DNA of 20,225 nucleotides, taken from contig JAISCD010000019.1 in the NCBI GenBank assembly GCA_031265825.1, positions 1 through 20,225 on the forward strand, read 5' to 3'. The position numbers were made by a program, and so were the translations under genes. Below the pieces are notes generated by a model. The model was not told where the DNA came from. It saw only the letters and a program-made list of their open reading frames with translations, and searched no databases. Within the stretch, counting starts at the first letter, position 1, and every line of letters starts with the position of its first letter. Source of the stretch: Treponema sp. GTDB taxonomy: Bacteria > Spirochaetota > Spirochaetia > Treponematales > Breznakiellaceae. Below, piece after piece: positions 4,783 to 20,225 of this stretch.

Positions 4783-4907
4783 ATGTCCGTCCTCATTTAT
4801 CTCCCCATAAATAATTAAATTGTTAAACAATGTCTCTGGGCGTTGTCAATCAACTGTATCAAATAAATATTCCAGAACTATTTTATTTTTTCCCCGCATT
4901 GCTATAC

Positions 4908-4960
4908 GCCAGACCCCGTTTTCTCAAGCGGGTTGAATGATTGCCGTCTCCGCATTTCCC
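4908..4960 (-). repeat. ~53-bp ghost copy of an internal segment of the endonuclease gene (homolog of 8503-8556), fused in-frame to array A
   Basis: tacgccagacccc(g)ttttctcaagcggRttgaatgattgccgtcYccgcatttcccc is present at both loci. It encodes GEMRGRQSFNPLEK in the endonuclease and GEMRRRQSFNPLEK at the C-terminus of the array ORF. A 1-nt indel then shifts the frame to a stop. Confidence 0.8.
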
Positions 4961-5376
4961 CGTCCACTCTCAAAGACCCGACATCCACTCTCAGAGACCC
5001 GACGTCCTCTCTCAAAGACCCGACTTCCACTCTCAGAGACCCGACTTCCACTCTTAAAGAGCCGACTTCCACTCTTAAAGAGCCGATTTCCTCTCTTTTA
5101 GACCCGACGTCCACTCTCAGAGAGCCGACACCCACTCTCAAAGACCCGACACCCACTCTCAAAGAGCCGATGTCCACTCTCAAAGACCCGACGTCCACTC
5201 TCAGAGAGCCGATTTCCACTCTCAGAGACCCGGCGTCCACTCTCAGAGACCCGACTTCCTCTCTCAGAGACCCGATGTCCACTCTCAAAGACCCGACATC
5301 CACTCTTTGAGAGCCGACATCCACTCTCAAAGAGCCGACGTCCTCTCTCAAAGAGCCGAAATCCACTCTCAGAGAG
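4961..5376. repeat. tandem array A: about 20 imperfect units of 21 bp (consensus tccactctcaRagaSccgacNt)
   Basis: Direct inspection shows strict 21-bp periodicity, with variation confined to a few positions. Each unit carries the palindrome (c)tctcAgaga(g), and many units also contain gacgtc. Both strands are open: + gives DPTSTLR heptads and - gives VGSLRVD heptads. Confidence 0.95.
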
Positions 5377-5384
5377 TAAAATAT

Positions 5385-5430
5385 CGCCGTGCTTTAACGT
5401 TATGCTGTTTTCTGTAGTCTTAATTTTGGG
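5385..5430 (-). repeat. ~46-bp ghost copy of the M1 3'-end / M2 5'-region junction (homolog of 6197-6242)
   Basis: atcgccgtgctttaRcgttatgYtgttttcYgtagtYttaatttt is present at both loci. In the real copy it encodes the last 11 aa of methyltransferase 1, and in another frame KIKTTENNITLKHGD, the N-terminal motif of methyltransferase 2. Confidence 0.8.
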
Positions 5431-5492
5431 CGCCACTTGACGCCTCTTTCTATTGCCGTCAAGGACGGCGGGCGAGACTGAGACTGTTACTT

Positions 5493-6152
5493 CTATAATA
5501 ATGACAATTCCATTGTCGTTTTATTGATCCTATCTTTTGCAATATTAAAATAATTATCATCAATTTCTATCCCAATAAATTTCCTTGCCAATTTCTTTGC
5601 CACTACTCCTGTTGTTCCACTACCCATAAATGGGTCTAAAATTGTATCTCCAATTCTACTACCCAATAATATAATACGCTTTAATAATGTCTCTGGCTTT
5701 TCCGTTGGGTGTTCCGTCAAATGTCTTTCCGCTGGTATTTCCCAAAGATTTTTCATCTGCTTTCCACCGTTTAATTCTTTTGCGGTATCATAATCAAAGA
5801 AATAGTTTTTTGTTTTGCTTGCAAGCCATATTAATTCAGTTGAAGGCGCAAGGCGATTCTTTGACAATAAAGGAGTAGCGTTCCTTTTAAACCATATAAT
5901 ATCGTTAATAATCCAATAATCAAGTTCTTTTAATAATACGCCAACGGAAGGGTGATTATGCAAGGTCCCAGACACCCATAATGTACCAGTATCCGATAAA
6001 ATCCTTTTACATTCTGTAAGCCACGCCCGATTAAAAGCATGAATATCATCAATAACATCCCATTTCCCTTTATCGCAGGCTACAGGTTTACCATTTTTAA
6101 CCGTAAGAAAACCTGCCCCTGACAAATTATAGGGGGGATCAGCAAAAATCAT
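5493..6152 (-). CDS. beta-class DNA amino-methyltransferase (N6-adenine or N4-cytosine), second methyltransferase of the R-M cassette. The N-terminus is anomalous
   Basis: Motif IV DPPYN lies at the N-terminus and motif I DPFMGSGTTG near the C-terminus, the beta permutation of the N6_N4_Mtase family. The gene is AT-rich. The conserved N-terminal segment is encoded upstream of the only ATG, which suggests an indel in the A-run at 6189-6193. Confidence 0.8.
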   Translation of the reverse strand: MIFADPPYNLSGAGFLTVKNGKPVACDKGKWDVIDDIHAFNRAWLTECKRILSDTGTLWVSGTLHNHPSVGVLLKELDYWIINDIIWFKRNATPLLSKNRLAPSTELIWLASKTKNYFFDYDTAKELNGGKQMKNLWEIPAERHLTEHPTEKPETLLKRIILLGSRIGDTILDPFMGSGTTGVVAKKLARKFIGIEIDDNYFNIAKDRINKTTMELSLL

Positions 6153-6211: not shown

Positions 6212-7072
6212 TTATGTTGTTTTCCGTAGTTTTAATTTTAGACGCTCCTTTGCAACAAGAATATACTGTTCGTTTTTTTCAATGCCAATCCAATGGCGGT
6301 TTAATTCTTTCGCAACTTTCCCTGTTGTCCCTGTTCCGAAAAATGGATCCAGCACTATATCATTTTCATTCGACGATGCTTTAATAATTAACTCTAATAG
6401 TTTTTCCGGTTTTTGCGTCGGATGAACCGCACGCCCATTTGTTCCCTTAATGCGTTCTTTTCCCTGAACAATAGGTATTTCGATAAAATCAAAAAAATCA
6501 CGCATTTGCTTGCTATCACCATCTTTTGTCTTATGTGGGTTAAATTCTTTAACCTCGTTGTAATTAAAAATCCAATTTTTGCCTTTAACAAACCAGCACA
6601 CAAATTCCGTAGAATGGGTAAAAGTTCGTTTTGTAATATTTGGCATAGCATTAGTTTTATACCATGTTAAAATATTATTGAGTTTGAAGCCTACCTTTTT
6701 CCCTTCAATAAGAATTTCGCCGATATTATGTTGAGTACATGAAATATACAAACTGCCATTTGGCAAAAGAATCTTATGGCAAGCCTTCAACCAAGTTGCC
6801 GTGAACGTTACATAATCGAGATAATTAAAAGTATCCCAATCCTCATTCATTTTGTAATATGCACCACCAGTTTTGTTGTTTTTCAAATCAAGCGGCTTAC
6901 CGGATAAATTATAAGGCGGGTCGGCAAACACAAGATTTATTGAGTTTTCTTGTATTTGGGTTTCGAGTATTTGTACACAATCGCCTTGTATAATTTGATT
7001 AAGTGGTAATTTATGCGACAAGGGATATACCCCATTTGTTAATGATAGTCGGAATATTTGCCAACCAATCAT
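6212..7072 (-). CDS. beta-class DNA amino-methyltransferase (N6-adenine or N4-cytosine), first methyltransferase of the R-M cassette
   Basis: N-terminus IIQGDCVQILE...SINLVFADPPYNL (motif IV) and C-terminal VLDPFFGTGTTGKVA (motif I). The ATG at 7072 overlaps the endonuclease 3' end by 62 bp. An in-frame TTG near 7022 would reduce that overlap to 8 bp. Confidence 0.85.
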   Translation of the reverse strand: MIGWQIFRLSLTNGVYPLSHKLPLNQIIQGDCVQILETQIQENSINLVFADPPYNLSGKPLDLKNNKTGGAYYKMNEDWDTFNYLDYVTFTATWLKACHKILLPNGSLYISCTQHNIGEILIEGKKVGFKLNNILTWYKTNAMPNITKRTFTHSTEFVCWFVKGKNWIFNYNEVKEFNPHKTKDGDSKQMRDFFDFIEIPIVQGKERIKGTNGRAVHPTQKPEKLLELIIKASSNENDIVLDPFFGTGTTGKVAKELNRHWIGIEKNEQYILVAKERLKLKLRKTT

Positions 7073-8822
7073 CGGATTTTGTGAGTTCCTTCGATGATAA
7101 AACTATCGATTCAAACAATTCTTGTATCTTTTTATGCGATAGAAAATAGTCTTTGTTTTGTTTCTTTGCATCGAATAAATACTGTAATATTTCAATAAAC
7201 TGCTGAATAGTGATAGGAACGATGTTTTGTTTTTGTCCCTCATATTCATATTTTACGGAAAACCAAAAGGTGTTTCTGGTATCACGGTGGATTTTAGGAG
7301 CGACAAAAAGGCAATATGATTGTTTTTCATTATGCATCGCTTCAAAGTCTCTAAAATGCCGCATCACAGGCTGTCCTTCGTTAAACCATTGCGAACGGCT
7401 GGTTAATAATGTTACTTCACAGATTGAATTAAATGCTTGATAAAAACATTCAATGTCTGGTTTATTTGCCGGCGCGGTAAAGGTTGGCACATTGTCATCG
7501 CCTACAGGATAATTAGGATGAATTTCCAGCGCATCATTTAGGGCGTGTAAGCCGCTGGTAATAATTCGTTCCAATTCAACGGGCTTTTTACCAGCGAGTT
7601 TATGAATATTCTTTAAGTTAGTTATACAACTCTTTATATTTTCCAGTAATTGTAATTCCGCATGAACGCTTGCATCTGATAATTTGCGTCGATAGGAACG
7701 CAAATTTTCAATAGTCTTTTTTAGTGTAGTAGCATTATCATCTTTAGGTTTTATCTGCGGCATTTTGGGAAGGCTAATGCCTTTTGCTTTCATTATGTAC
7801 TCGGTTGTTTCAATGTCGGCGACTAATAATTTAATAACTTCCTGTAACTTCGTTTTATTTTCCCATGGCAATTCTGGCTGTGTAGCATCTCCTAAATACG
7901 TTGAGTATTCTGCTTTTAACGCGAATGTTTTTGCCGATGCGTTATCTGTTTCGATAATTGAATCAATCTCTATTTTTCGTCGCGGCTCTAGATCAATATA
8001 ATAATCATTTCCACGCAGATAAAAAAACCGAGTAAGGTGGAAGTTGCGTATTACATTATCCGCATAGTCTTTTGCGTTCCCCCATGACTCGTATTCGGAG
8101 AAATACTTATAAAAATATTCTTCCGCAAACTTTTCTATGCTTTCAGCAATTTTTACCTTTTGATAATCATTGCGGAATTTTAATATCTTTTCTGCCGTCT
8201 CTTCAATGTTTACATAGCTTGATAATGTTGTAAAGAACAAAGCGAATTCTATTTTTGATACGCCTTTTTCTTTTATACCTTGTCCAGCGCAAAGCGTATT
8301 TACTTTTTTAATTAAATGAAATGTAGCAATAAGTGGTTTAATATTGTAACCATCTTCTGCGGAATATTTATTCAGGTCAGGGTTGGGATATTGCCATTTA
8401 AGGAAACTACGAAAAAAAATATCGCCTAAATCGTAATTTTCGGATAAAAAAGCCTGTCCAAATGTGGTAACTTTTATTTTCTTTTCCGTATCAATATACG
8501 CCAGACCCATTTTCTCAAGCGGATTGAATGATTGCCGTCCCCGCATTTCCCCACCGCCTTTATAGTTTTTAGCGTTCAGTATTTCTTCCGCTTGTTCGTA
8601 GGTAAATGTATCGGAATGAAGCCATTCAAAGTGTTTTTTAGTTAATGTTTTTTCAAATTCGGGAATATTTATTCCGTATATTTTTCTCTGAAGCAGTAAT
8701 ATTTGGTAGCATTTCTGAGTTTCATCATTCCAAACTTCCCCCTCCAATTCCTTAAAAACCTTCAAGAAGGTACGTATCCGCTCGGGGTTTCTAACAGTTG
8801 TTGATATAGACCAAAGTCTCAT
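7011..8822 (-). CDS. putative type IIS restriction endonuclease, AlwI / N.BstNBI / PleI / MlyI-like (603 aa)
   Basis: A large ORF sits immediately upstream of, and co-oriented with, two strand-specific beta-class methyltransferases. That is the typical layout of a type IIS R-M system. Its size matches AlwI-family enzymes (~560-610 aa). Segments LKWQYP, PDIECFYQAFNSICEVT, QPVMRHF and YCLFVAPKI resemble AlwI-family (RE_AlwI) landmarks as I recall them. This was not verified by a search. A GAGGA RBS is present. Confidence 0.6.
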   Translation of the reverse strand: MRLWSISTTVRNPERIRTFLKVFKELEGEVWNDETQKCYQILLLQRKIYGINIPEFEKTLTKKHFEWLHSDTFTYEQAEEILNAKNYKGGGEMRGRQSFNPLEKMGLAYIDTEKKIKVTTFGQAFLSENYDLGDIFFRSFLKWQYPNPDLNKYSAEDGYNIKPLIATFHLIKKVNTLCAGQGIKEKGVSKIEFALFFTTLSSYVNIEETAEKILKFRNDYQKVKIAESIEKFAEEYFYKYFSEYESWGNAKDYADNVIRNFHLTRFFYLRGNDYYIDLEPRRKIEIDSIIETDNASAKTFALKAEYSTYLGDATQPELPWENKTKLQEVIKLLVADIETTEYIMKAKGISLPKMPQIKPKDDNATTLKKTIENLRSYRRKLSDASVHAELQLLENIKSCITNLKNIHKLAGKKPVELERIITSGLHALNDALEIHPNYPVGDDNVPTFTAPANKPDIECFYQAFNSICEVTLLTSRSQWFNEGQPVMRHFRDFEAMHNEKQSYCLFVAPKIHRDTRNTFWFSVKYEYEGQKQNIVPITIQQFIEILQYLFDAKKQNKDYFLSHKKIQELFESIVLSSKELTKSDDWLANIPTIINKWGISLVA

Positions 8823-8931
8823 ATATTCCTCATTATTATCATAAAGTTTTTATTTGTCCTTTATAATTTTCCCTTCAATTCATCAATTTCACTAATTAGT
8901 AAAGCAAAAACATTCTTATTTAATGAGTATC

Positions 8932-9245
8932 TTAATTCTCAGAGAGCCAACATCCACTCTCAGAGAGCCGATGTCCACTCTCAGAGACCCGTCATCCACT
9001 CTCAGAGACCCGATTTCCACTCTCAAAGAGCCGACATCCATTCTCAAAGAGCCGACGTCCACTCTCAGAGAGCCGATTTCCACTCTCAGAGAGCCGACTT
9101 CCACTCTCAAAGACCCGACGTCCTCTCTCAGAGACCCGACGTCCTCTCTTTTAGTCCCGACGTCCACTCTCAAAGAACCGACATCCACTCTCAGAGAGCC
9201 GACATCCACTCTCGGAGACCCGACGTCCACTCTCAAAGAGCCGAC
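8932..9245. repeat. tandem array B: about 15 units of the same 21-bp repeat (consensus tccactctcagagagccgacRt), in direct orientation to array A
   Basis: Direct inspection. The core palindrome ctctcAgagag (5-1-5) is cleaner here than in array A. On the minus strand the array lies 94 bp upstream of the endonuclease start codon. Confidence 0.95.
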
Positions 9246-9286
9246 GTCGGGTCTTTGAAAGTGAGTGGATACTCTCTGAGTATCCG
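9226..9286. repeat. terminal inverted repeat unit and hairpin pair closing array B
   Basis: The last unit is followed by its own near-exact reverse complement (ctcaaagagccgac|gtcgggtctttgaaag). A perfect 8-3-8 palindrome ggatactc-tct-gagtatcc follows, and it embeds the repeat core in inverted form. Confidence 0.7.
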
Positions 9287-9311
9287 ATACCGCGTTCTCG
9301 ATGGGTGCAGG

Positions 9312-9794
9312 TTAGGTTTCCGTCTCAACCTCGCTGGGTGTCCGCTTGCCGCCGGGGAAGCGGGTTCTCAGTTCCTCGTAGACCGCCTTTGCGCCGGGTA
9401 TATCCTGTTCCGCCGCCATTTTGACAGACTTGTAAAACACGAGGGCGGCTTGATAGGCTTCGCTTCCAGCTATCATTTCCGTGTCTTCTATGTTCTCATC
9501 AAGTTGCCGAATACTGTTGGCAAGCGTCCAAAGCCCGTGGGCGTCGTCAAAATCCACGCCGAAAGCGATTATATCAAGGTAGGTTGGGACAAAATTCGGA
9601 TTCTTCTTGGCAAAATCGTAGGATTTCTCCACAAAACTTATGGTTTTCTCACCCATTTTAGGCAATTCGTGCCGTTCAGTCGGGGTCAGAGCCATCACAT
9701 AGGGGGCTAAAAGCGTCTTGACCTCGTCAATCTTGGTCTGCGCCTGCGTCAAAACATCCTGCGGTATGGCTTGGACGTGTTTATTATCCTTCAT
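9312..9794 (-). CDS. hypothetical protein (160 aa)
   Basis: Clean ORF with a GAGGAG RBS (ttgactttGAGGAGattATG). Its GC content matches the housekeeping genes. No recognisable family. Confidence 0.6.
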   Translation of the reverse strand: MKDNKHVQAIPQDVLTQAQTKIDEVKTLLAPYVMALTPTERHELPKMGEKTISFVEKSYDFAKKNPNFVPTYLDIIAFGVDFDDAHGLWTLANSIRQLDENIEDTEMIAGSEAYQAALVFYKSVKMAAEQDIPGAKAVYEELRTRFPGGKRTPSEVETET

Positions 9795-10067: not shown

Positions 10068-10574
10068 ATGAAAAATTATTTTAGGTTTACGCTGTTGGTT
10101 CTCGTTGTTTTCTTTTCATTTCTGTCTTGTGAAGGTCTAACGATTGCTACGGTTGATTTTGATTATAATAAATTCAAAATTGAAAGATCGGCTTGGGAAA
10201 ATTCAAGCCCGCTTAATTATCAATATAAGTTATCAAATAGTGGCGGGGGAGAATATGTTCCCATTAACACTTTAATTATTGTTGAAAATGGACAATTTAA
10301 AGAACAAACTCCTCTTTCGGAATATGGAGAAGCAGGGGAAAATTATCAAACAATACATAAAGTTTACGAAACAATAGAAGATATTTATCAAAGATATAAT
10401 AATACCCAGCAATCTAAAAAAGATTTTTATTTAACAAAAATAAAAATAGAATATGATTCAAATCATGTTCCTCTAAAAACAGAGTATTATTATTACATTC
10501 CTCCATATTTAATGGATATGAGCACGTATTGGCGCTACGAAATAGAAAATTATAAAACAAATAGTAATGAGTAA
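10068..10574 (+). CDS. putative lipoprotein (168 aa), AT-rich
   Basis: GAAGGAG RBS. Signal peptide MKNYFRFTLLVLVVFFSFLSC ends in a lipobox-like FLSC with Cys at +1. The mature part is Tyr/Asn-rich and low in GC. No homolog recognised. Confidence 0.6.
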   Translation: MKNYFRFTLLVLVVFFSFLSCEGLTIATVDFDYNKFKIERSAWENSSPLNYQYKLSNSGGGEYVPINTLIIVENGQFKEQTPLSEYGEAGENYQTIHKVYETIEDIYQRYNNTQQSKKDFYLTKIKIEYDSNHVPLKTEYYYYIPPYLMDMSTYWRYEIENYKTNSNE

Positions 10575-10589
10575 TGAGGAAAGATGGGC

Positions 10590-11068
10590 GGGTGCCGCGG
10601 GTGTCAGAGACGTGAGGTGGCGGAGTAGGCGATGTCTGCGAGTGTCAGACGTGCGAGTTTTTTGGGGGTGGCGGAAGACCCGCGCAAGCGGGTCTGGAGA
10701 CAGGGGGGCGCACCGCAAGGGCGTCTGTGTGCCGTCCTCCGTTTAAGGAAAGACGCGCCCCCCTCATACAGAGAACAAATAGTAAAGAGCAGAGAGCAAT
10801 TAGTAAAGAGCAAAGGAAGAAGAGCCGTCCGAGGTGCAAACTGGGCGGCGCTTCGAGTGTCAGACATAAACAACGAATAGGCTCCGCTTGCTTGCAAGCG
10901 CACCCTTCGGGTGTTTTAAAGCGTCCTGCCTCGCCGTGCGTGTGGATTACCGAACATCGCGGAGGTTCCGCTTGCAAGGCAAGCGTAACCGTCCTGTCGG
11001 GGTCAGCGGCACACCCTTTCAAACAATAACCCGTGTGAAGTATTTAAACACCCGTTGGGTGTTTTTTT
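10590..11068 (+). repeat. GC-rich structured repeat element, copy L (inverted partner of 13152-13625)
   Basis: It aligns as a reverse complement with 13152-13625 over ~450 bp. It contains GTGTCAGAGAC and GTGTCAGAC palindromes, several stable hairpins, and an internal AGTAAAGAGC micro-repeat block. It ends in a perfect rho-independent terminator. The last ~20 codons of mazG are read from it on the opposite strand. Confidence 0.85.
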
Positions 11069-11851
11069 AGCTTCTTGCCAATATTTTTCCATGAGCGCAA
11101 GATTTTCATGATTCATCGCTTGAGATGATGCCCGCATTTGCTGTTCAATGTACTTGAATCGTTGAATGAACTTGGCGTTTGTCCGTCTCAGAGCGAGCGA
11201 AGGTTCCACTTTGAGAAAACGGCACAGGTTCACCGTTGCGAAAAGCAGATCCCCAAGCTCCTCTTCGAGGAATTCGGAGCGAGACGGATCGTTTTTTGCC
11301 AATTCCGCCATTACTTCGCCGATCTCTTCTTGGATTTTATCCACGACTTCCTCAGGTTTATCCCAATCAAAGCTCATTTTGGCGGCTTTTTTCTGCAATT
11401 TAAAGGCGCGGTCAAGGGGCGGCAAAGCGTTGGAGACTTCGTCCATGACAGAATCCTTCGGGGCGCGCCCCTCTTGCTCGATCTTTATCTTCTCCCAGTT
11501 ACGGAGAACCTCGGCGCTGTCCCCGACCTCAACGTCTCCAAATACGTGCGGGTGGCGGCGCGTGAGCTTTTCCGCAACACCCGCCAGAACATCGGAAACC
11601 GAGAAAAGCCCCGCCTGCTCGTGCATATAGGACAACATGACCGCGAGGAGAAAGACGTCCCCCAATTCTTCCTTGATATGCTCAGGGTCTCCCTCATCTA
11701 TGGCTTCGATACATTCATAAGTCTCTTCGATAAGCCCCGCGCGGAGGCTCGAAGGGGTTTGTTCCCTGTCCCACGGGCATCCATCGGGCGCGCGGAGTCT
11801 GGCAATGACGTTGTATAAATCCCTGAAGGTTTTTTCTAATTCGTTAATCAT
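11003..11851 (-). CDS. mazG: nucleoside triphosphate pyrophosphohydrolase MazG (tandem MazG domains)
   Basis: N-terminus MINELEKTFRDLYNVIARLRAPDGCPWDREQT with the EExGDxF motif and a second MazG domain (EELGDLLF). The C-terminal ~20 aa lie inside repeat element L. Confidence 0.9.
   Translation of the reverse strand: MINELEKTFRDLYNVIARLRAPDGCPWDREQTPSSLRAGLIEETYECIEAIDEGDPEHIKEELGDVFLLAVMLSYMHEQAGLFSVSDVLAGVAEKLTRRHPHVFGDVEVGDSAEVLRNWEKIKIEQEGRAPKDSVMDEVSNALPPLDRAFKLQKKAAKMSFDWDKPEEVVDKIQEEIGEVMAELAKNDPSRSEFLEEELGDLLFATVNLCRFLKVEPSLALRRTNAKFIQRFKYIEQQMRASSQAMNHENLALMEKYWQEAKKTPNGCLNTSHGLLFERVCR
11047..11068 (+). terminator. intrinsic terminator (aacaccc-gtt-gggtgt followed by TTTTTTT)
   Basis: A perfect 6-bp GC-rich stem, a 3-nt loop and a 7-T run on the + strand. 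On the minus strand the same hairpin is followed by tttaaatactt, which makes a weaker terminator for mazG. Confidence 0.7.
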
Positions 11852-11915
11852 GCTTGATTATACTTCAAGGAAAGGAGGCTTTACAAGACCGCAACTTTGA
11901 ATGTAGAATAGGCTT

Positions 11916-13151
11916 ATGAATACAGCATTAGAAAACCTGAGAGCCCGAGGATTTTTTCGGCAATGTACAGACGCGGAGCGGTTGTCCGCGCTCATGGACG
12001 AGGGTCCTGTTACGTTTTATGTGGGGTGCGACCCTACGGGATCGAGTCTTCACATCGGACACATGGTACCGTTTTTTGCGTTTCGGCACTTGCGCGCCGC
12101 GGGTCATCGTGGAATAGCCCTGATCGGCGGCGGTACGTCCCGCATCGGGGATCCTTCTGGCAAAACGTCCATGCGTCAAATGCTTGATTACGAGAAATTG
12201 GACGAAAACGCCGCTTCTATTACAAGGCAATTGGATGCTTTCTTGAACTTTGACGGACAAAATGCCTTCACCGCCAACAATAAGGATTGGCTCGCGGAAC
12301 TTAATTACATTGATTTCCTGCGCGATATAGGGAGGCATTTCTCTGTCAATCGTATGCTTTCCTTCGAGGCTTATCGTCTCCGTATGGAAACCGGGCTTTC
12401 GTTTCTTGAATTCAACTATCAGTTATTGCAGAGTTACGATTTCCTGCAATTATTCCGTAAACACGGGTGTCGTCTTCAGATAGGCGGGGATGATCAGTGG
12501 GGCAATATTGTCGCGGGTTCGGACTTGATTCGGCGGATTGACGGCGCGGAGGTGTTTGGTCTCACGTTCCCGCTTATCACCACAGCGGACGGCAAGAAGA
12601 TGGGCAAGACCGAGAAGGGCGCGCTCTTTCTTGACCCGTCTATCACTTCGCCTTATGACTTCTTCCAATATTGGCGGAATGTTCAGGACGCGGATATTAG
12701 GCGTTTCCTGCTCATGTTCACGTTTCTCTCTGTCGAAGAATGTACGGCTCTTACTGCGGAGGGCACGAGTCCCAACAACGCGAAGGAAAGGCTTGCCTGG
12801 GAGGTAACGGCTCTCATACACGGGAGGGATGCGGCGAATCGCGCGCTTGCCGGCGCACGCGCGAGTTTCGGCGGTTCGGGTGGCGATAAGTCCGCGGTAC
12901 CGACCGTCTCTCTTGCTATGGATAAGTTCGACGCGGGTTATAACATCGTCGATTTGTTCACAGATGCGGGGCTTTGTTCCACGAAGAGCGAGGCGCGGCG
13001 TCTTGTCCAGCAGGGCGGCGCATTTGTGAGCTGTGACGACGAGGGGTTCGTAGCCATAACGGATCCGAAAGCCGTGGTGGGTTTTTCAGAAGAATTGGTT
13101 CTTCGTGCAGGCAAGAAGCGCACCCTTCGGCTGCACCCGAAGGCTGTTTAA
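11916..13151 (+). CDS. tyrS: tyrosine--tRNA ligase
   Basis: Class I motifs HIGH (SLHIGHMVPF) and KMSKS (KKMGKTE) are present. A C-terminal S4-like domain ends the protein. It is divergent from mazG with a 64-bp intergenic gap, too short for a T-box leader. Confidence 0.95.
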   Translation: MNTALENLRARGFFRQCTDAERLSALMDEGPVTFYVGCDPTGSSLHIGHMVPFFAFRHLRAAGHRGIALIGGGTSRIGDPSGKTSMRQMLDYEKLDENAASITRQLDAFLNFDGQNAFTANNKDWLAELNYIDFLRDIGRHFSVNRMLSFEAYRLRMETGLSFLEFNYQLLQSYDFLQLFRKHGCRLQIGGDDQWGNIVAGSDLIRRIDGAEVFGLTFPLITTADGKKMGKTEKGALFLDPSITSPYDFFQYWRNVQDADIRRFLLMFTFLSVEECTALTAEGTSPNNAKERLAWEVTALIHGRDAANRALAGARASFGGSGGDKSAVPTVSLAMDKFDAGYNIVDLFTDAGLCSTKSEARRLVQQGGAFVSCDDEGFVAITDPKAVVGFSEELVLRAGKKRTLRLHPKAV

Positions 13152-13625
13152 CGACTTCACACGGGTTGTTGTACGAAAGGCGGACCCGCTGTCCCCGCAC
13201 CCTTCGGGTGTTGGACAACTTCACAATGGTTGTTGTTTGAAAGGTTGACCCGCTGACCCCGTCTTGACGGTTACGCTTGTCTTGCAAGCGGAACCTGCTC
13301 GTTGTTTATGTCTGACACCCGAAGCACACCCGAAGCGCCGCCCGGCTTGCACCTCGGACGGCTCTTCTTCCTTTGCTCATTGCTCATTACTAACTGCTAA
13401 TTGCTCTCTCCCCTCTGCTAACTGCTAACTATTCATTACTCACTAGTATGAGGGGGGCGCATCTTTCCCTAAACGTGATTGGCACACAGACGCCCTTGCG
13501 GTGCGCCCCCCTGTCTCCAGACCGCCCCCGCGTGGCGGGTTTAAAAGGGGCGGTCTTCCGCCACCCCCCAAAACTTGCACCTCTGACACCATCGCCTCCG
13601 CCCGCCTGCCGGTGCCTACCCGCCG
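13152..13625 (-). repeat. GC-rich structured repeat element, copy R (inverted partner of 10590-11068)
   Basis: Reverse-complement alignment with copy L. It starts exactly at the tyrS stop. It contains a tandem internal duplication of a ~47-bp module (13154-13200 and 13215-13262), an expanded TTAGCAG-type micro-repeat block, and a hairpin whose stem sequence differs from L while staying complementary. Confidence 0.85.
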
Positions 13626-13676
13626 TCCGTCTTTCCTCTTTGCTATCTGCTTTATTATTTGCTCTTTTTTATTTGG

Positions 13677-13890
13677 TGTCAGGCATCGCCCCGAAACTCC
13701 GCCCTGTGCCTGCGGTGTCAGACATCGCCTTACTCCACCGCCCGGCGTGGTGTCAGTCATTATACTTTTATGTCTGCGTACCGGGGGTGCGGCGGCGTGC
13801 GTGCGGTGTCAGACATGGGCTATTCAGCGTGGTGTCAGACACTATACCTGCGTATCGGGACATAGGCTTATTACGGCTAGGTGTCAGACA
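13677..13890 (+). repeat. row of six direct GGTGTCAGACAY palindromic motifs spaced at 30-57 bp
   Basis: Motif starts at 13677, 13716, 13750, 13807, 13837 and 13881, all in the same orientation. The core GTGTC-A-GACAC is a 5-1-5 palindrome. Confidence 0.85.
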
Positions 13891-14172
13891 TCTTGTCTTA
13901 ACTCTGCGCCATCTTGTCTTAACTCTGCGCCATCTTGTCTCAACTCTGCACCATCTTGTCTCAACTCCGCGCCATCTTGTCTCAACTCCGCTCCATCTTG
14001 TCTTAACTCTGCTCCATCTTGTCTTAACTCTGCTCCATCTTGTCTCAACTCTGCGGCATCTTGTCTCAACTCTACGCCATCTTGTCTCAACTCTGTCGTA
14101 TCTTGTCTTAACTCTGCGCCATCTTGTCTCAACTCTGCGCCATCTTGTCTCAACTCTATGGCATCTTGTCTC
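13889..14172. repeat. tandem array C: about 13.5 units of a different 21-bp repeat (catcttgtctYaactctgcgc)
   Basis: Direct inspection. The array is bracketed on both sides by GTCAGACAT motifs. The left boundary forms a 5-3-5 palindrome agaca-tct-tgtct. Confidence 0.95.
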
Positions 14173-14189
14173 TGTCAGACATCGGGACT

Positions 14190-14282
14190 ATGTTTGGGGA
14201 GGGGGTAGCGTAAGACCGATCCTTTTAAACCAGCTACGCGGGGGACGAGCTGGAGACAGGGGGCGCACCACAAGGATATGAG
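14190..14282 (+). repeat. third, partial copy of the element core (same orientation as copy L)
   Basis: aagaccgatccttttaaaccagctacgcgggggacgagctggagacagggggcgcaccacaagg matches the L/R core (ggcggaagacc...ctggagacaggggggcgcaccgcaagg). Confidence 0.7.
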
Positions 14283-14332
14283 AAAGTCCGCGTGCGCGCG
14301 GATTTGTCTGTTCTGTATTTACTAAATGTTAC

Positions 14333-14343
14333 GGGGGGGGGGG
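14333..14343 (+). repeat. homopolymeric G tract (11 G)
   Basis: Counted directly in the sequence. It is the longest homopolymer in the window and lies ~620 bp upstream of the SPFH operon. Confidence 0.9.
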
Positions 14344-14964
14344 TAGATCGCTCGTATTCCCACAAACAGCCTTCTATAGCGGCTTGCGGGCTTCCAAAGA
14401 CGAGAAAGTTCTCTATGCGCTTGTCGTTTCTGCATAGTATTTACCCAAAAGACAGAAATTGTCAAACGCATTTGACTATAAATGCTTGCTTTACAGATAA
14501 GTTTACGTTATAATAGCAGTACGAGCCAAAGCTGAGGCTTTAGAGCCTCGCGGCGCCGCTCCGCTGGAATACGGCGTGCCGACTCGCAAGGGTTTGTAAC
14601 TACAGACTTGCATGGACTCCGTAATAACGCGGCTGACTTGTCAAGACCGCGTCTTATTATTGAAATATCATCCATGCTCCATGCGTCAGCGTGCGCAAAA
14701 CAAAAGCGCTAAGTCTTAAGTGAAGATCTTAGTAAGCATGGTTAGGAATAGCCTTATTATTCCGCAACGCCGAAGACGGTAAAGGGTCGGCAACCCTTGC
14801 GCGGCACCGGATACCGCCGCTCTGTTTCTTGTCGATGCGCCCGTTTCGAGAAACGCGACTTTCGCTTTTTACAAACGGACGCGGACGCTCAGAACATACA
14901 GGCTCAAAGAGCCGCCCGTTTGTCTGCCTCGACTTCGGCGTTTTATCAGTTTTAGGAGAGAAAA

Positions 14965-16116
14965 ATGCAAATCTTACAAGAAGAACGCGGTCTGCTTTAC
15001 CGAAGAGACGAATATAAAAGACTGCTTATGCCCGGAAAATATTTTATCCCACCCGGCTGTCGAGTGGAACGCTATTGTATCGACGAACCGTTCAACCCTG
15101 ATAATCATAACATCAACGGACTTTTGGAACAGGATAAAGCCATCGCCGAAAATCTTGACGTCATTGAAGTCCCAGATGGACGCCTCCTCCTCGTCCATGA
15201 GAACGGCAACCTCATCGGCGCGTTTCTTGGCGACAACAGGAAAGTCTGCTATTGGAAGTTTTCTCGTTCAGTTGGTAGCGAGAGAACACGCAAGTTTACC
15301 TTGGTTGACCTTAACGATGCGGAAAGCGCGAAAAACTTGGACCGCGCCGTGTTGACTCATCCACTGGTAACAAGGTTGAATATCGTGTTGAGATGCGACG
15401 TCAAGAGCTGGGAGAAAGGACTCCTCTTCATAGACGATCAATTCATCCACCTTTTGGAAAGCGGCGTTCATTTCTTCTGGGACGTGGATATAAACAGCGA
15501 GGGACAGGGACGCATTGAAATAGTAAAGACCGATCTCAGGCAACAACAGATTGATATTTCAGGGCAGGAAATTATGACCGCGGATAAGACGCCCCTCCGC
15601 GTCAACTTCTTCTGCCGCTACCGCGTCATTGATATAATGAAGTCCATACTCAGTATAAAAGACTTGAGAGAACAGTTTTATACAGCTCTGCAAATCGTTC
15701 TCCGCGAATATCTTGGTTCTCTTACTTTCGACGCGCTCATGGAAAAACGGCGGAGTATAGCGACTGAAATGTCCGAAACGCTTCGAGAGGTCTGCGCGGG
15801 TTTCGGGCTTGAATTCATAGGCGCGGGTATAAAGGACATCATCCTACCCGGCGAAATCCGCGAAATCATGAACCAAGTTCTCATCGCGGAGAAGAAGGCT
15901 CAGGCAAACGTCGTTATGCGGCGGGAAGAAACCGCCTCGACGCGGAGTCTCCTCAACACGGCAAAACTTATGGAAGAAAATACGGTACTTGCCCGTTTGA
16001 AAGAGATGGAGTATATTGAACGTATTGCTTTGAATATTAAGGAGATTAGCCTTTCCGGTAAATTTCAAGTATTCGACGAATTACGGACTCTGTTCACGCC
16101 GAAGAGCGGCGGTTGA
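14965..16116 (+). CDS. SPFH/band-7 (stomatin/prohibitin/HflKC-like) domain protein with an uncharacterised N-terminal domain
   Basis: The C-terminal half follows the SPFH pattern (GLLFIDDQ...GVHFFWD...IDISGQEIMTADKTPLRVNFFCRYRVID...ILPGEIREIM). The RBS context ttttaggagagaaaaATG is identical to the one in front of htrA. Confidence 0.75.
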   Translation: MQILQEERGLLYRRDEYKRLLMPGKYFIPPGCRVERYCIDEPFNPDNHNINGLLEQDKAIAENLDVIEVPDGRLLLVHENGNLIGAFLGDNRKVCYWKFSRSVGSERTRKFTLVDLNDAESAKNLDRAVLTHPLVTRLNIVLRCDVKSWEKGLLFIDDQFIHLLESGVHFFWDVDINSEGQGRIEIVKTDLRQQQIDISGQEIMTADKTPLRVNFFCRYRVIDIMKSILSIKDLREQFYTALQIVLREYLGSLTFDALMEKRRSIATEMSETLREVCAGFGLEFIGAGIKDIILPGEIREIMNQVLIAEKKAQANVVMRREETASTRSLLNTAKLMEENTVLARLKEMEYIERIALNIKEISLSGKFQVFDELRTLFTPKSGG

Positions 16117-18953: not shown

Positions 18954-19757
18954 ATGATTATTGGTATAGATATAGGAAGTACGACGACAAAAGCCGTATC
19001 CATTGAGAACGGGAAAATCACGCGGAAGATCAAGACAAAAGCCATTGACGCGGTAACTTCCGCGACCGGCGCTTTGGGTAAGATGCTCTTGGAAAATGAT
19101 ATAAGAATCGCCGAGATAAAGCGAATTATGACTACCGGAGTCGGGGCGACCAAGATAAAGGGCGACTTATTTGACATACAGACGCGCAGAGTTGACGAAA
19201 TGACCGCCATCGGCATAGGGGGTATGTTCCTTGCGGGCAGGGACAATATCATTATAACGAACATAGGAACAGGCTCCGCTATTATTGAGGCGAAAAAAGA
19301 CAAGATTTCCCACATCGGCGGTTCAGGCATAGGCGGCGGCGCCATACTTGGGTTGGCGAAAAAATTGCTTGCCACCTCAAATTTCAACGATATTATGGTG
19401 CTTGCAGAGAGAGGCGACATCAAACAGGTAGACCTGCTCTTGGAAGACATCATGGACACGGATTTAAGTTTCCTCAATAAGGAAGCCACTGCGTCCAATT
19501 TTGGCAAGATGCTCGACTCGGCAAAAAACGAGGACATCGCTCTGGGGATTCTCAATATGGTCTACCAAGTCATAGGTATGCTATCGGTCTTCGCCGCACA
19601 GTCCAGAGGCTTAAACAGCGTCGTGATTACCGGCAATGGAAGCGCGAATTCCATTGGTAAACGTGTGCTCAAAACCATCACAGACATTTATAGAGTCTCG
19701 TTTGAGTATCCTGAAGACGCAGTCTACACCACAGCCATCGGCGCGGGGCTAGGGTGA
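18954..19757 (+). CDS. coaW: type II (Fumble/CoaW-like) pantothenate kinase
   Basis: 267 aa. N-terminal IGIDIGSTTTK, central NIGTGSAII...IGGSGIGGGAILGLAKKLL, then ATASNFG, and a C-terminal AIGAGLG. This matches the acetate/sugar-kinase-fold type II PanK pattern and length as I recall them. Not verified by a search. Confidence 0.65.
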   Translation: MIIGIDIGSTTTKAVSIENGKITRKIKTKAIDAVTSATGALGKMLLENDIRIAEIKRIMTTGVGATKIKGDLFDIQTRRVDEMTAIGIGGMFLAGRDNIIITNIGTGSAIIEAKKDKISHIGGSGIGGGAILGLAKKLLATSNFNDIMVLAERGDIKQVDLLLEDIMDTDLSFLNKEATASNFGKMLDSAKNEDIALGILNMVYQVIGMLSVFAAQSRGLNSVVITGNGSANSIGKRVLKTITDIYRVSFEYPEDAVYTTAIGAGLG

Positions 19758-19790
19758 TTTTCATGAATAAAGAGCAATGAGCAGGTAGTA

Positions 19791-20225
19791 AGGCGTTGTG
19801 GTGCCAGACACCCGCGAAAGTGCCAGACACCAGCGCCTAGCCCCCGTGCCCTGACCCCGCCCGCCCGTCTTTCCTTTGCTAACTGCTAACTGCTAATTGC
19901 TAACTGCTCTCTGAAAAAAGGCGTTATGGTGCCCGCGAGGGCGTTGCGGTGTCTGACACCAGCGCCTAGCCACCGTGTCCTGCCCCCGCCTGCCCGTCTT
20001 TCCTTTGCTACCTGCTACCTGCTAACCACTAACTGCTACCTGCTCTCTGCTAATTGCTAACTGCTCTCTGCTAACTGCTCTCTGAAAAAAGGCGTTATGG
20101 TGCCAGACACCAGCGCCTAGCCCCCGTGTCCTGCCCCCGCCCGCCCGTCTTTCCGTTGCTAACTGCTCTCAGCTAACAGCTCTCAGAAAAAAGGCGTTGT
20201 GGGGACAGAAACCCGCGCCCAGCCG
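19791..20225 (+). repeat. composite tandem repeats of 123, 171 and 102 bp, with a fourth truncated by the window end. Each holds a variable block of CTGCTAA/CTGCTAC heptamers
   Basis: Units start at ~19791, 19914, 20085 and 20187. The module order is aaaaaaggcgttRtggtgcc-agacacc-agcgcctagcccccgtgYcctgMccccgccYgcccgtctttcc-(ttgcta + heptamer x3-10)-ctctctg. The first modules are related to 13575-13680 of element R. Confidence 0.9.

Follow-up and report, generated by a model that had tools for sequence, protein, structure and literature searches.

Inverted repeats at the 3′ ends of mazG and tyrS are probable copies of a modular, gene-end-attached repeat family in termite-gut Treponema

The window analyzed here, 20,225 nt long, is the entire metagenome contig JAISCD010000019.1 of an uncultured termite-gut Treponema. 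It carries a divergent gene pair, mazG and tyrS, at whose 3′ ends lie two long, inverted, hairpin-bearing elements, termed L (on the mazG side) and R (on the tyrS side), which are the subject of this study. The TyrS relatives found after the window's own protein were from Treponema metagenome-assembled genomes (MAGs), T. primitia (75%), and Breznakiella, and the window is accordingly assigned to the termite-gut Treponema clade. The locus was found to be organized as follows.

10556-10584: distal end of L, made of heptamer repeats (TAGTAAT GAGTAAT GAG...) and rich in stop codons.
~10575-11068: element L, spanning the full spacer between a convergent lipoprotein gene and mazG.
10664-10765: core of L, from GGGGGTGGCGG to GCGCCCCCCTC (nhmmer E 3e-35), with a variable hairpin at 10676-10695, the invariant GGGGGGCGC at 10703-10711, and the invariant GCGCCCCCC at 10755-10763.
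10885-10900: hairpin B′ of L in a short form, joined directly to hairpin A′ at 10901-10913 (CACCCTTCGGGTG); missing from R.
10958-11068, minus strand (mazG-sense): terminal module of L, with hairpin A at 11049-11061, TTTAAATACTTCACA..., and hairpin B at 10969-10985.
11003-11851, minus strand: mazG, 282 amino acids (aa), Pfam MazG, stop codon at 11003-11005.
11857-11909: promoter-like sites of the two genes, arranged divergently within the 64 nt that separate mazG from tyrS.
11916-13151, plus strand: tyrS, 411 aa, with a Pfam assignment, stop codon at 13149-13151.
~13118-13665, plus strand (tyrS-sense): element R, starting inside tyrS.
13452-13568: core of R, with an extended variable hairpin at 13519-13556.

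The JGI call of tyrS is 362 aa in length and starts from an internal Met (P0001, P0003). The relatives can be aligned over their full length with the 411-aa open reading frame (ORF) from 11916, so the database TyrS proteins are N-terminally truncated calls.

L and R were found to be reverse-complement homologues, with 10642-10908 pairing with 13589-13266 (72% over 326 columns, BLAST E 2e-48) and with a perfect block of 43 nt (10691-10733 versus 13481-13523). A repeat search recovered two further pairs of arms, 10953-11061/13198-13306 and 10769-10860/13326-13417, at 83% and 82% identity, respectively. The inverted repeat pair reported in a preliminary description of this DNA is thus real. That description had presented it as a clean pair of about 470 bp; the inverted arms are homologous, but L and R are mosaics. 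When 10560-11100 was aligned by MAFFT with the reverse complement of 13120-13660, mean column identity was 78% with many indels. R has an internal tandem duplication of 64 nt (13133-13196 and 13197-13260), an 18-nt hairpin extension, and insertions of 29 nt and 11 nt, while about 75 nt of L (10880-10957) are missing from R. In L, read on the plus strand, the core follows a GTGTCAGAC sub-unit and precedes heptamers, after which come a second sub-unit, hairpins B′ and A′, a spacer, and the terminal module (hairpin B through hairpin A). In R, tandem hairpin A and the 64-nt duplication are followed by hairpin B (13274-13290) and GTCTGACAC, then by one sub-unit and a stretch of heptamers (13371-13445), and lastly by the core and a distal, heptamer-bearing sub-unit.

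Further copies were identified by nhmmer with models built from an alignment of the core (A2) and of the terminal module (A4). In the 43 kb of element-bearing DNA surveyed, which comprises the window and contigs L001, L002, and L006, there were nine matches to the core (seven full or near-full and two partial) and about ten to the terminal module, all of them outside genes or at gene edges, as for dispersed intergenic copies. The element is therefore not confined to the mazG-tyrS locus, and the third partial copy that had been noted downstream was recovered at 14192-14279 (nhmmer E 4e-8). L002 is a syntenic contig from another sample, which encodes a TyrS 96% identical to that of the window and has orthologous L and R copies; the lipoprotein gene's stop codon (10572-10574 in the window) is overlapped by the distal heptamers of L in both contigs, with the same junction. 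L001, from a Treponema MAG, was the one locus returned by a core-pattern scan of species-representative genomes; one copy begins 1 nt past the stop codon of a chemotaxis-receptor (MCP) gene, and a second, core-less copy lies 600 nt further in the opposite orientation. L006 was reached via a spurious, element-derived ORF. Copies cap both a helicase gene there and the ATPase-domain gene convergent with it, one copy per gene; a 21-nt tandem array separates these two copies, and a third core follows the stop codon of NifU. Core identity across contigs from different samples or MAGs was 72-89%. No core or terminal-module match was detected by nhmmer in L004, L005, L008, L009, or L007 (21 kb around tyrS of T. 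primitia ZAS-2), and L003 gave one weak match. A phmmer search of 1.84 billion representative proteins with a core-derived ORF returned only five other such ORFs, no similar sequence was present in plasmid, phage, or viral collections, and no description of the repeat family or its motifs was found in the searchable literature. As far as these data reach, the family is real but narrowly distributed, and it is apparently an undescribed repeat family of uncultured termite-gut Treponema. A separate observation concerns L003:320-470, downstream of mazG in this otherwise element-free relative, where a diverged homologue of the terminal module lies in the opposite orientation (nhmmer E 4e-9), accompanied by a different long hairpin and GTGACAGACAC motifs; this suggests that older related repeat families exist in the clade.

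The copies are built from a small set of modules. In the gene-sense direction an arm comprises: (i) hairpin A (CACCC-NNN-GGGTG, a 13-nt palindrome) followed by TTTAA; (ii) ATACTTCACAATGGTTGTTGTCCGAAAGG plus a variable stretch, forming a linker of about 65 nt; (iii) hairpin B (CGCTTG-loop-CAAGCG); (iv) GTCTGACAC, a C-rich sub-unit, and (GCTAACT)n heptamers; (v) the core, comprising GAGGGGGGCGC ... GCGCCCCCC, a variable hairpin, and CTTCCGCCACCCCCC; and (vi) one more sub-unit. The G6...C6 core, with its variable hairpin, is about 105-125 nt in length and is conserved far above the other modules (seven copies, with many invariant columns). The heptamer number ranges from 2 to about 17 per copy, and because the period is 7 nt, every frame of (GCTAACT)n contains a stop codon, which is TAA or TAG depending on the strand. 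Hairpins A and B are fused or 65 nt apart depending on the copy. Cores occur without a terminal module (L006:1-80), and terminal modules occur without a core (the R arm of L002 and L001:1191-1303); that is, a few modules recur in varied combinations and numbers, as in BIME and BOX repeats. The GTGTCAGAC motif has eight exact matches in the window against 0.06 expected, all within repeat regions. Additional module-bearing regions of the window are listed below.

13660-13900: run of GTGTCAGAC-type motifs at a spacing of about 45 nt.
14192-14279, plus strand (L orientation): truncated third core, in which a long-form but degenerate hairpin and the beginning of the G-run are present; kept in L002 at 8964-9050.
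19757-20225: three tandem sub-units of GTGCCAGACACC, C-rich stretch, and (GCTAACT)n, beginning right after a pantothenate-kinase-like gene; the contig ends within them.

The element was also considered as coding DNA, since ORFs are present in several frames; this was rejected, as inter-copy indels are not multiples of three and no coding potential is preserved across copies. Homology searches with the element-derived ORFs matched only further spurious ORFs (P0121, P0123, P0124, P0126-P0128).

The attachment of the copies to gene 3′ ends was examined at the level of codons. The final codons of both genes were found to be read from the element, as previously described: mazG extends 22 codons into L, and the stop codon of tyrS lies inside R. 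Two hairpin-A units in tandem (13121-13133 and 13134-13146) supply the last nine codons of tyrS and its stop (TLRLHPKAV*, the asterisk denoting the stop). A C terminus of the form GKKR-TLR(L/V)(H/Q)PKAV* was seen only in the window and L002, whereas the TyrS of all 38 other relatives inspected (38/38) ends in ...LRAGKKR[YF]C[RL][VI]xx. The last 22 codons of mazG likewise derive from L (..WQEAK-KTPNGCLNTSHGLLFERVCR*), and the MazG tail is WQEAKLN* in element-free L003 versus WQEAK-THPSGV* in L002. In L006, the helicase gene ends in ..TLRV* and the ATPase gene in ..HLKGV*, while the receptor gene of L001 retains its own stop codon 1 nt ahead of hairpin A. In total, placement at the 3′ end was observed for five independent genes. 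In L003, an ordinary gene-specific terminator is found 30 nt past tyrS. The hairpin-A end is shown by these junctions to join at or just inside the 3′ end of the gene, in a fixed gene-relative orientation, and the element takes the place of the gene's own C-terminal residues, its stop codon, and the native terminator region. The earlier claim that the elements begin exactly at the gene 3′ ends is thus upheld as regards anchoring to gene ends and not as regards the junction itself, given that R begins within tyrS at about 13118, rather than at 13152, and that mazG reaches into L. Since mazG and tyrS are divergent and each has a copy at its 3′ end, L and R look like a bracketing inverted repeat; copies face inward on this divergent pair and outward on the convergent pair of L006.

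Two details of the inner junctions are reported separately. An A7/T7 run at the mazG-L junction (11045-11075) shifts the mazG frame relative to L002, which is why the window mazG runs 22 codons into the element; in the other frame the tail would be KKHPTGV*. The same run also creates a canonical plus-strand terminator, and it could be either a homopolymer sequencing error or a real change. The 10-mer GGCAAGAAGC, shared by both inner junctions, raised the idea that the repeat extends further or that this is a target site. The idea was rejected: the 10-mer encodes GKK in tyrS and WQEA in mazG and is native to both genes, being conserved in element-free relatives; its presence at both junctions is a coincidence.

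Structural conservation was evaluated with RNAalifold on seven cores and eight terminal modules, on both strands, and only local hairpins were retained. The variable hairpin of L (10676-10695, AGACCCGC-GCAA-GCGGGTCT) corresponds in R to a long form at 13519-13556, in which by direct reading the outer stem AGACCGCC/GGCGGTCT is kept and an inner CCCGC-CAC-GCGGG hairpin is added. Its covariation, first noted between L and R, was confirmed across six copies, with two pairs showing double-sided changes (GC/CG swaps). Hairpin A has two such pairs and hairpin B has one, giving five double-sided pairs, the mark of stem-loop palindromes maintained by compensatory change. Pairing in the given structures was 92-97% of cells versus 28-64% with the partners slid, and for the terminal module none of 500 shuffles reached the observed covariation (0/500). 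The hairpins are selected or maintained. The long-range pairing of G6CGC with GCGC6, which had been put forward as a structural signature, is invariant in seven of seven copies and is uninformative on structure because it never varies; in addition, GGGGGGTGGCGG is a competing partner for this helix. Whole elements fold moderately better than shuffles (z -2.0 to -3.6), with folds that differ between copies and strands. Two further ideas were discarded, namely (i) a global RNA fold common to the copies, because RNAalifold kept local hairpins only; and (ii) an assignment of the sense strand from G-U wobbles, which favour different strands in different hairpins and are contradictory. Rfam 15 yielded no match in L, R, or the L001, L002, and L006 copies, even at E<=10 (window) or E<=1 (loci), and the Rfam matches in tandem arrays were sub-threshold noise. 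Thus, of the shared folding that had been anticipated, three local hairpins covary and no whole-element fold is shared, and a conserved 450-nt fold is not supported.

A terminator scan identified a canonical intrinsic terminator on the plus strand at the end of L (11046-11064 plus T7; hairpin A and T7 together at 11046-11068). The textbook terminator previously described is therefore present, but its T7 tail is peculiar to the window copy of L, the orthologous L002 copy having GGGTGTGTCTTGG instead. A canonical stem with a T-run is also found at L001:820-845, and most copies of hairpin A are then followed only by TTTAAAT.

Comparison of the window with L002 provided a view of how the copies change. 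The flanking genes are 93-96% identical, yet identity falls to 73% for terminal modules at the same position. At six sites the L and R arms of the window agree with each other and differ from the likewise agreeing arms of L002, while no site has the orthologous pattern. Both window arms share a derived ACCGCAAGG where five other copies have ACCACAAGG. The arms, or the family genome-wide, are thus homogenized by gene conversion, and the comparison shows that copies exchange sequence within a genome (concerted evolution). In the R arm of L002, precisely the G6...C6 core has been lost and the heptamers have expanded to about 17 units; copies thus gain and lose modules quickly. The precise loss of the G6..C6 segment led us to consider the core as a MITE (miniature inverted-repeat transposable element) of its own, which was rejected since the repeats at its ends are weak, consisting of G6 alone, and a duplication could not be resolved. 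The genes flanking mazG-tyrS differ in every relative, which places the elements at synteny breakpoints. In L003 and L005 tyrS is followed by a GntR gene; the window lacks it, and no remnant was found downstream of tyrS.

On this evidence, L and R are probably two independent copies of a lineage-restricted, noncoding, modular, interspersed repeat family, attached to gene 3′ ends and functionally similar to BIME, BOX, SPRITE, and MIRU repeats. mazG and tyrS each acquired one at the 3′ end. The stacked GC-rich hairpins may act at the RNA level, terminating transcription, protecting 3′ ends, or insulating convergent transcription units from each other; the L copy may form a bidirectional terminator, and the family presumably spreads by recombination or transposition activity. 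Several points weigh against this explanation. No target-site duplication, clear single-arm terminal inverted repeat, or associated transposase was found; hairpin A in the gene-sense direction is followed only by UUUAAAU with no long U-tract; the strong conservation of the core could mean a specific function beyond that of a generic stack of hairpins; and the copy counts are limited to 43 kb. Those 43 kb contain neither a transposase nor a RAYT (IS200/IS605-like) gene. A possible but unlikely alternative is that the elements derive from a non-autonomous transposon (a MITE or mobile cassette) targeting gene 3′ ends or terminator hairpins, whose mobile forms would be composites of 0.8-1.9 kb (arm, 21-nt array, and arm, with the hairpin-A ends outward), L and R being solo arms. 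Consistent with it, L006:2525-4420 and L001:496-1303 are bounded by inverted terminal modules of about 110 nt, filled (window and L002) and empty (L003 and L005) orthologous sites exist, the core is 72-89% identical among contigs of different samples or MAGs, and contig ends fall inside the repeats. However, none of the junctions examined has a target-site duplication, the surveyed DNA encodes no transposase, and the plasmid, phage, and viral collections gave no match; L and R also lack a second terminal module, with hairpin A at one end only, and the filled and empty sites differ in flanking synteny as well, such that a clean insertion cannot be demonstrated. A more far-reaching proposal, which we regard as improbable, is that the G6...C6 core with its covarying hairpin is a functional, structured nucleic-acid module (e.g., a recognition site or guide-like RNA of a recombinase or nuclease) and that, with hairpin A and the linked heptad-coding 21-nt arrays, it would form a new mobile element that homes to gene 3′ ends, rewrites C termini including that of an essential tRNA synthetase, and mediates synteny breaks. 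On present evidence, no new mechanistic category is called for.

Two functional readings of the locus itself were also weighed against the repeat-family explanation. The preliminary description proposed that a structured transcript of about 450 nt arises by read-through from the lipoprotein gene, and a discrete noncoding RNA gene transcribed through L and ending at the 11046-11068 terminator would account for the covarying hairpins, the canonical plus-strand terminator, a folding stability modestly above that of shuffles (z -2.0 to -3.6), and the strongly conserved core. Against this, covariation is restricted to three short local hairpins, no copy has an Rfam match, the long-range helix is invariant and has GGGGGGTGGCGG as an alternative partner, the T7 tail is found in this copy only, wobbles point to different strands in different hairpins, and no promoter of its own was found. 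The copies moreover differ in module content, with indels from 18 to >100 nt and variable microsatellites, and the orthologous R arm of L002 is without the whole core despite a TyrS 96% identical, which argues against a conserved 450-nt RNA. The RNA gene is for these reasons improbable, and the transcript as proposed is not borne out. Inversion of the mazG-tyrS segment, which was also raised previously, is physically possible, as the inverted arms lie 2.1 kb apart with a perfect 43-nt block and exchange sequence (six sites versus none), but one orientation was present in both the window and L002 haplotypes. A phase-variation-like switch, with inversion of the segment as the purpose of the arms, is very unlikely: no recombinase gene is nearby, elements elsewhere are single or outward-facing, the divergent mazG-tyrS arrangement is ancestral and predates the element (L003 and L005), and an inversion would switch nothing because both promoters lie inside the segment, leaving expression unaltered.

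The repeat family was compared with known systems. Established precedents (PMC3184786) include repeats that join the 3′ ends of genes, the SPRITE repeats, which resemble terminators and are biased to convergent genes, BOX elements with their modular build, and MIRUs that overlap the ends of genes. Like SPRITE, the Treponema repeats are interspersed, non-coding, and carry a terminator-like stem-loop; SPRITE is however a single module of about 105 nt, whereas the elements described here are mosaics of 350-550 nt with several hairpins, microsatellites, and a conserved core, and no sequence similarity to SPRITE was detected in any collection searched (none was expected). BOX and BIME repeats share with them a modular and intergenic nature, a variable number of sub-units, stable hairpins, and rapid rearrangement, but have other modules and another host clade, and the overlap with coding 3′ ends and the donation of stop codons set the present family apart. 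In MIRUs and Rickettsia palindromic elements (RPEs), repeat termini similarly overlap adjacent gene ends and repeat-derived codons enter proteins (PMC3184786). MIRUs differ in being tandem units of 40-100 bp inside operons, and RPEs in inserting in-frame internally, while the present elements replace no more than the stop codon and the C-terminal tail. MITEs such as Correia and Nezha are likewise non-autonomous, free of a transposase, endowed with long stem-loops, and seen as filled versus empty sites; in contrast, no target-site duplication was found here, single arms are without terminal inverted repeats, and inverted termini of about 110 nt are present in composite copies only. Integron attC sites are also imperfect palindromes at or overlapping a gene stop codon with a gene-relative orientation. 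They are, however, 57-141 bp in length and form cassette arrays next to intI, whereas the present elements are 350-550 nt in length, have no integrase, and adjoin housekeeping genes with their own promoters; the attC motifs RYYYAAC and GTTRRRY were matched in some copies only, and the elements do not qualify as attC sites. The family thus works like these repeat families and is by sequence a member of none.

In these genomes a repeat has replaced the C-terminal strand, stop codon, and terminator of the essential gene tyrS, with an R-x-x-R-[LV] pattern kept. The family explains where metagenome contigs of this clade break, and it carries a warning for annotation, as the repeat is the source of C-terminal tails like HPxGV* or TLRV*. 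If a terminator or insulator role is established for the hairpin stacks, they would help in studying 3′-end formation in Treponema, in which this process is poorly characterised.

Other features of the window include a homopolymer tract, G11 at 14333-14343, which is interrupted (GGGGGAGGGG) in L002 at about 9103-9113 and is C16 at a comparable position in L001 (958-973). Relative to a good promoter-like site on the minus strand (14465-14436, TTGACA-18-AATACT), the tract is positioned about 100 nt downstream, and it could be length-variable in the manner of phase variation. The region 14300-14965 (L002 9080-9730) comprises about 650 nt of conserved (~91%) non-coding DNA upstream of an SPFH/Band-7 gene, with no Rfam match and no ORF. 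Tandem arrays of 21 nt with different unit sequences recur beside core copies, between inverted arms (window 13884-14170; L006:3082-3531; P0123/P0124). The window array is read on the minus strand as the heptad AELRQDG (ORF 13884-14153), and 10 of its 12 minor-allele counts fall in one codon phase, i.e., they are synonymous in the AELRQDG frame. This ORF has a TTG start only and no clear ribosome-binding site. The codon-phase bias suggests that the 21-nt arrays encode heptad-repeat peptides. Two further 21-nt arrays in direct orientation (4821-5498 and 8811-9320) flank a low-GC (33-37%) restriction-modification island that contains an AlwI-family endonuclease (7011-8822, minus strand) and two N6/N4 DNA methylases (5493-6152 and 6212-7072, minus strand). 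On the minus strand these flanking arrays read as the heptad GSLRV(D/E)(V/I), with unit polymorphisms that are mostly synonymous or conservative, and the island together with its arrays is also present in L002.

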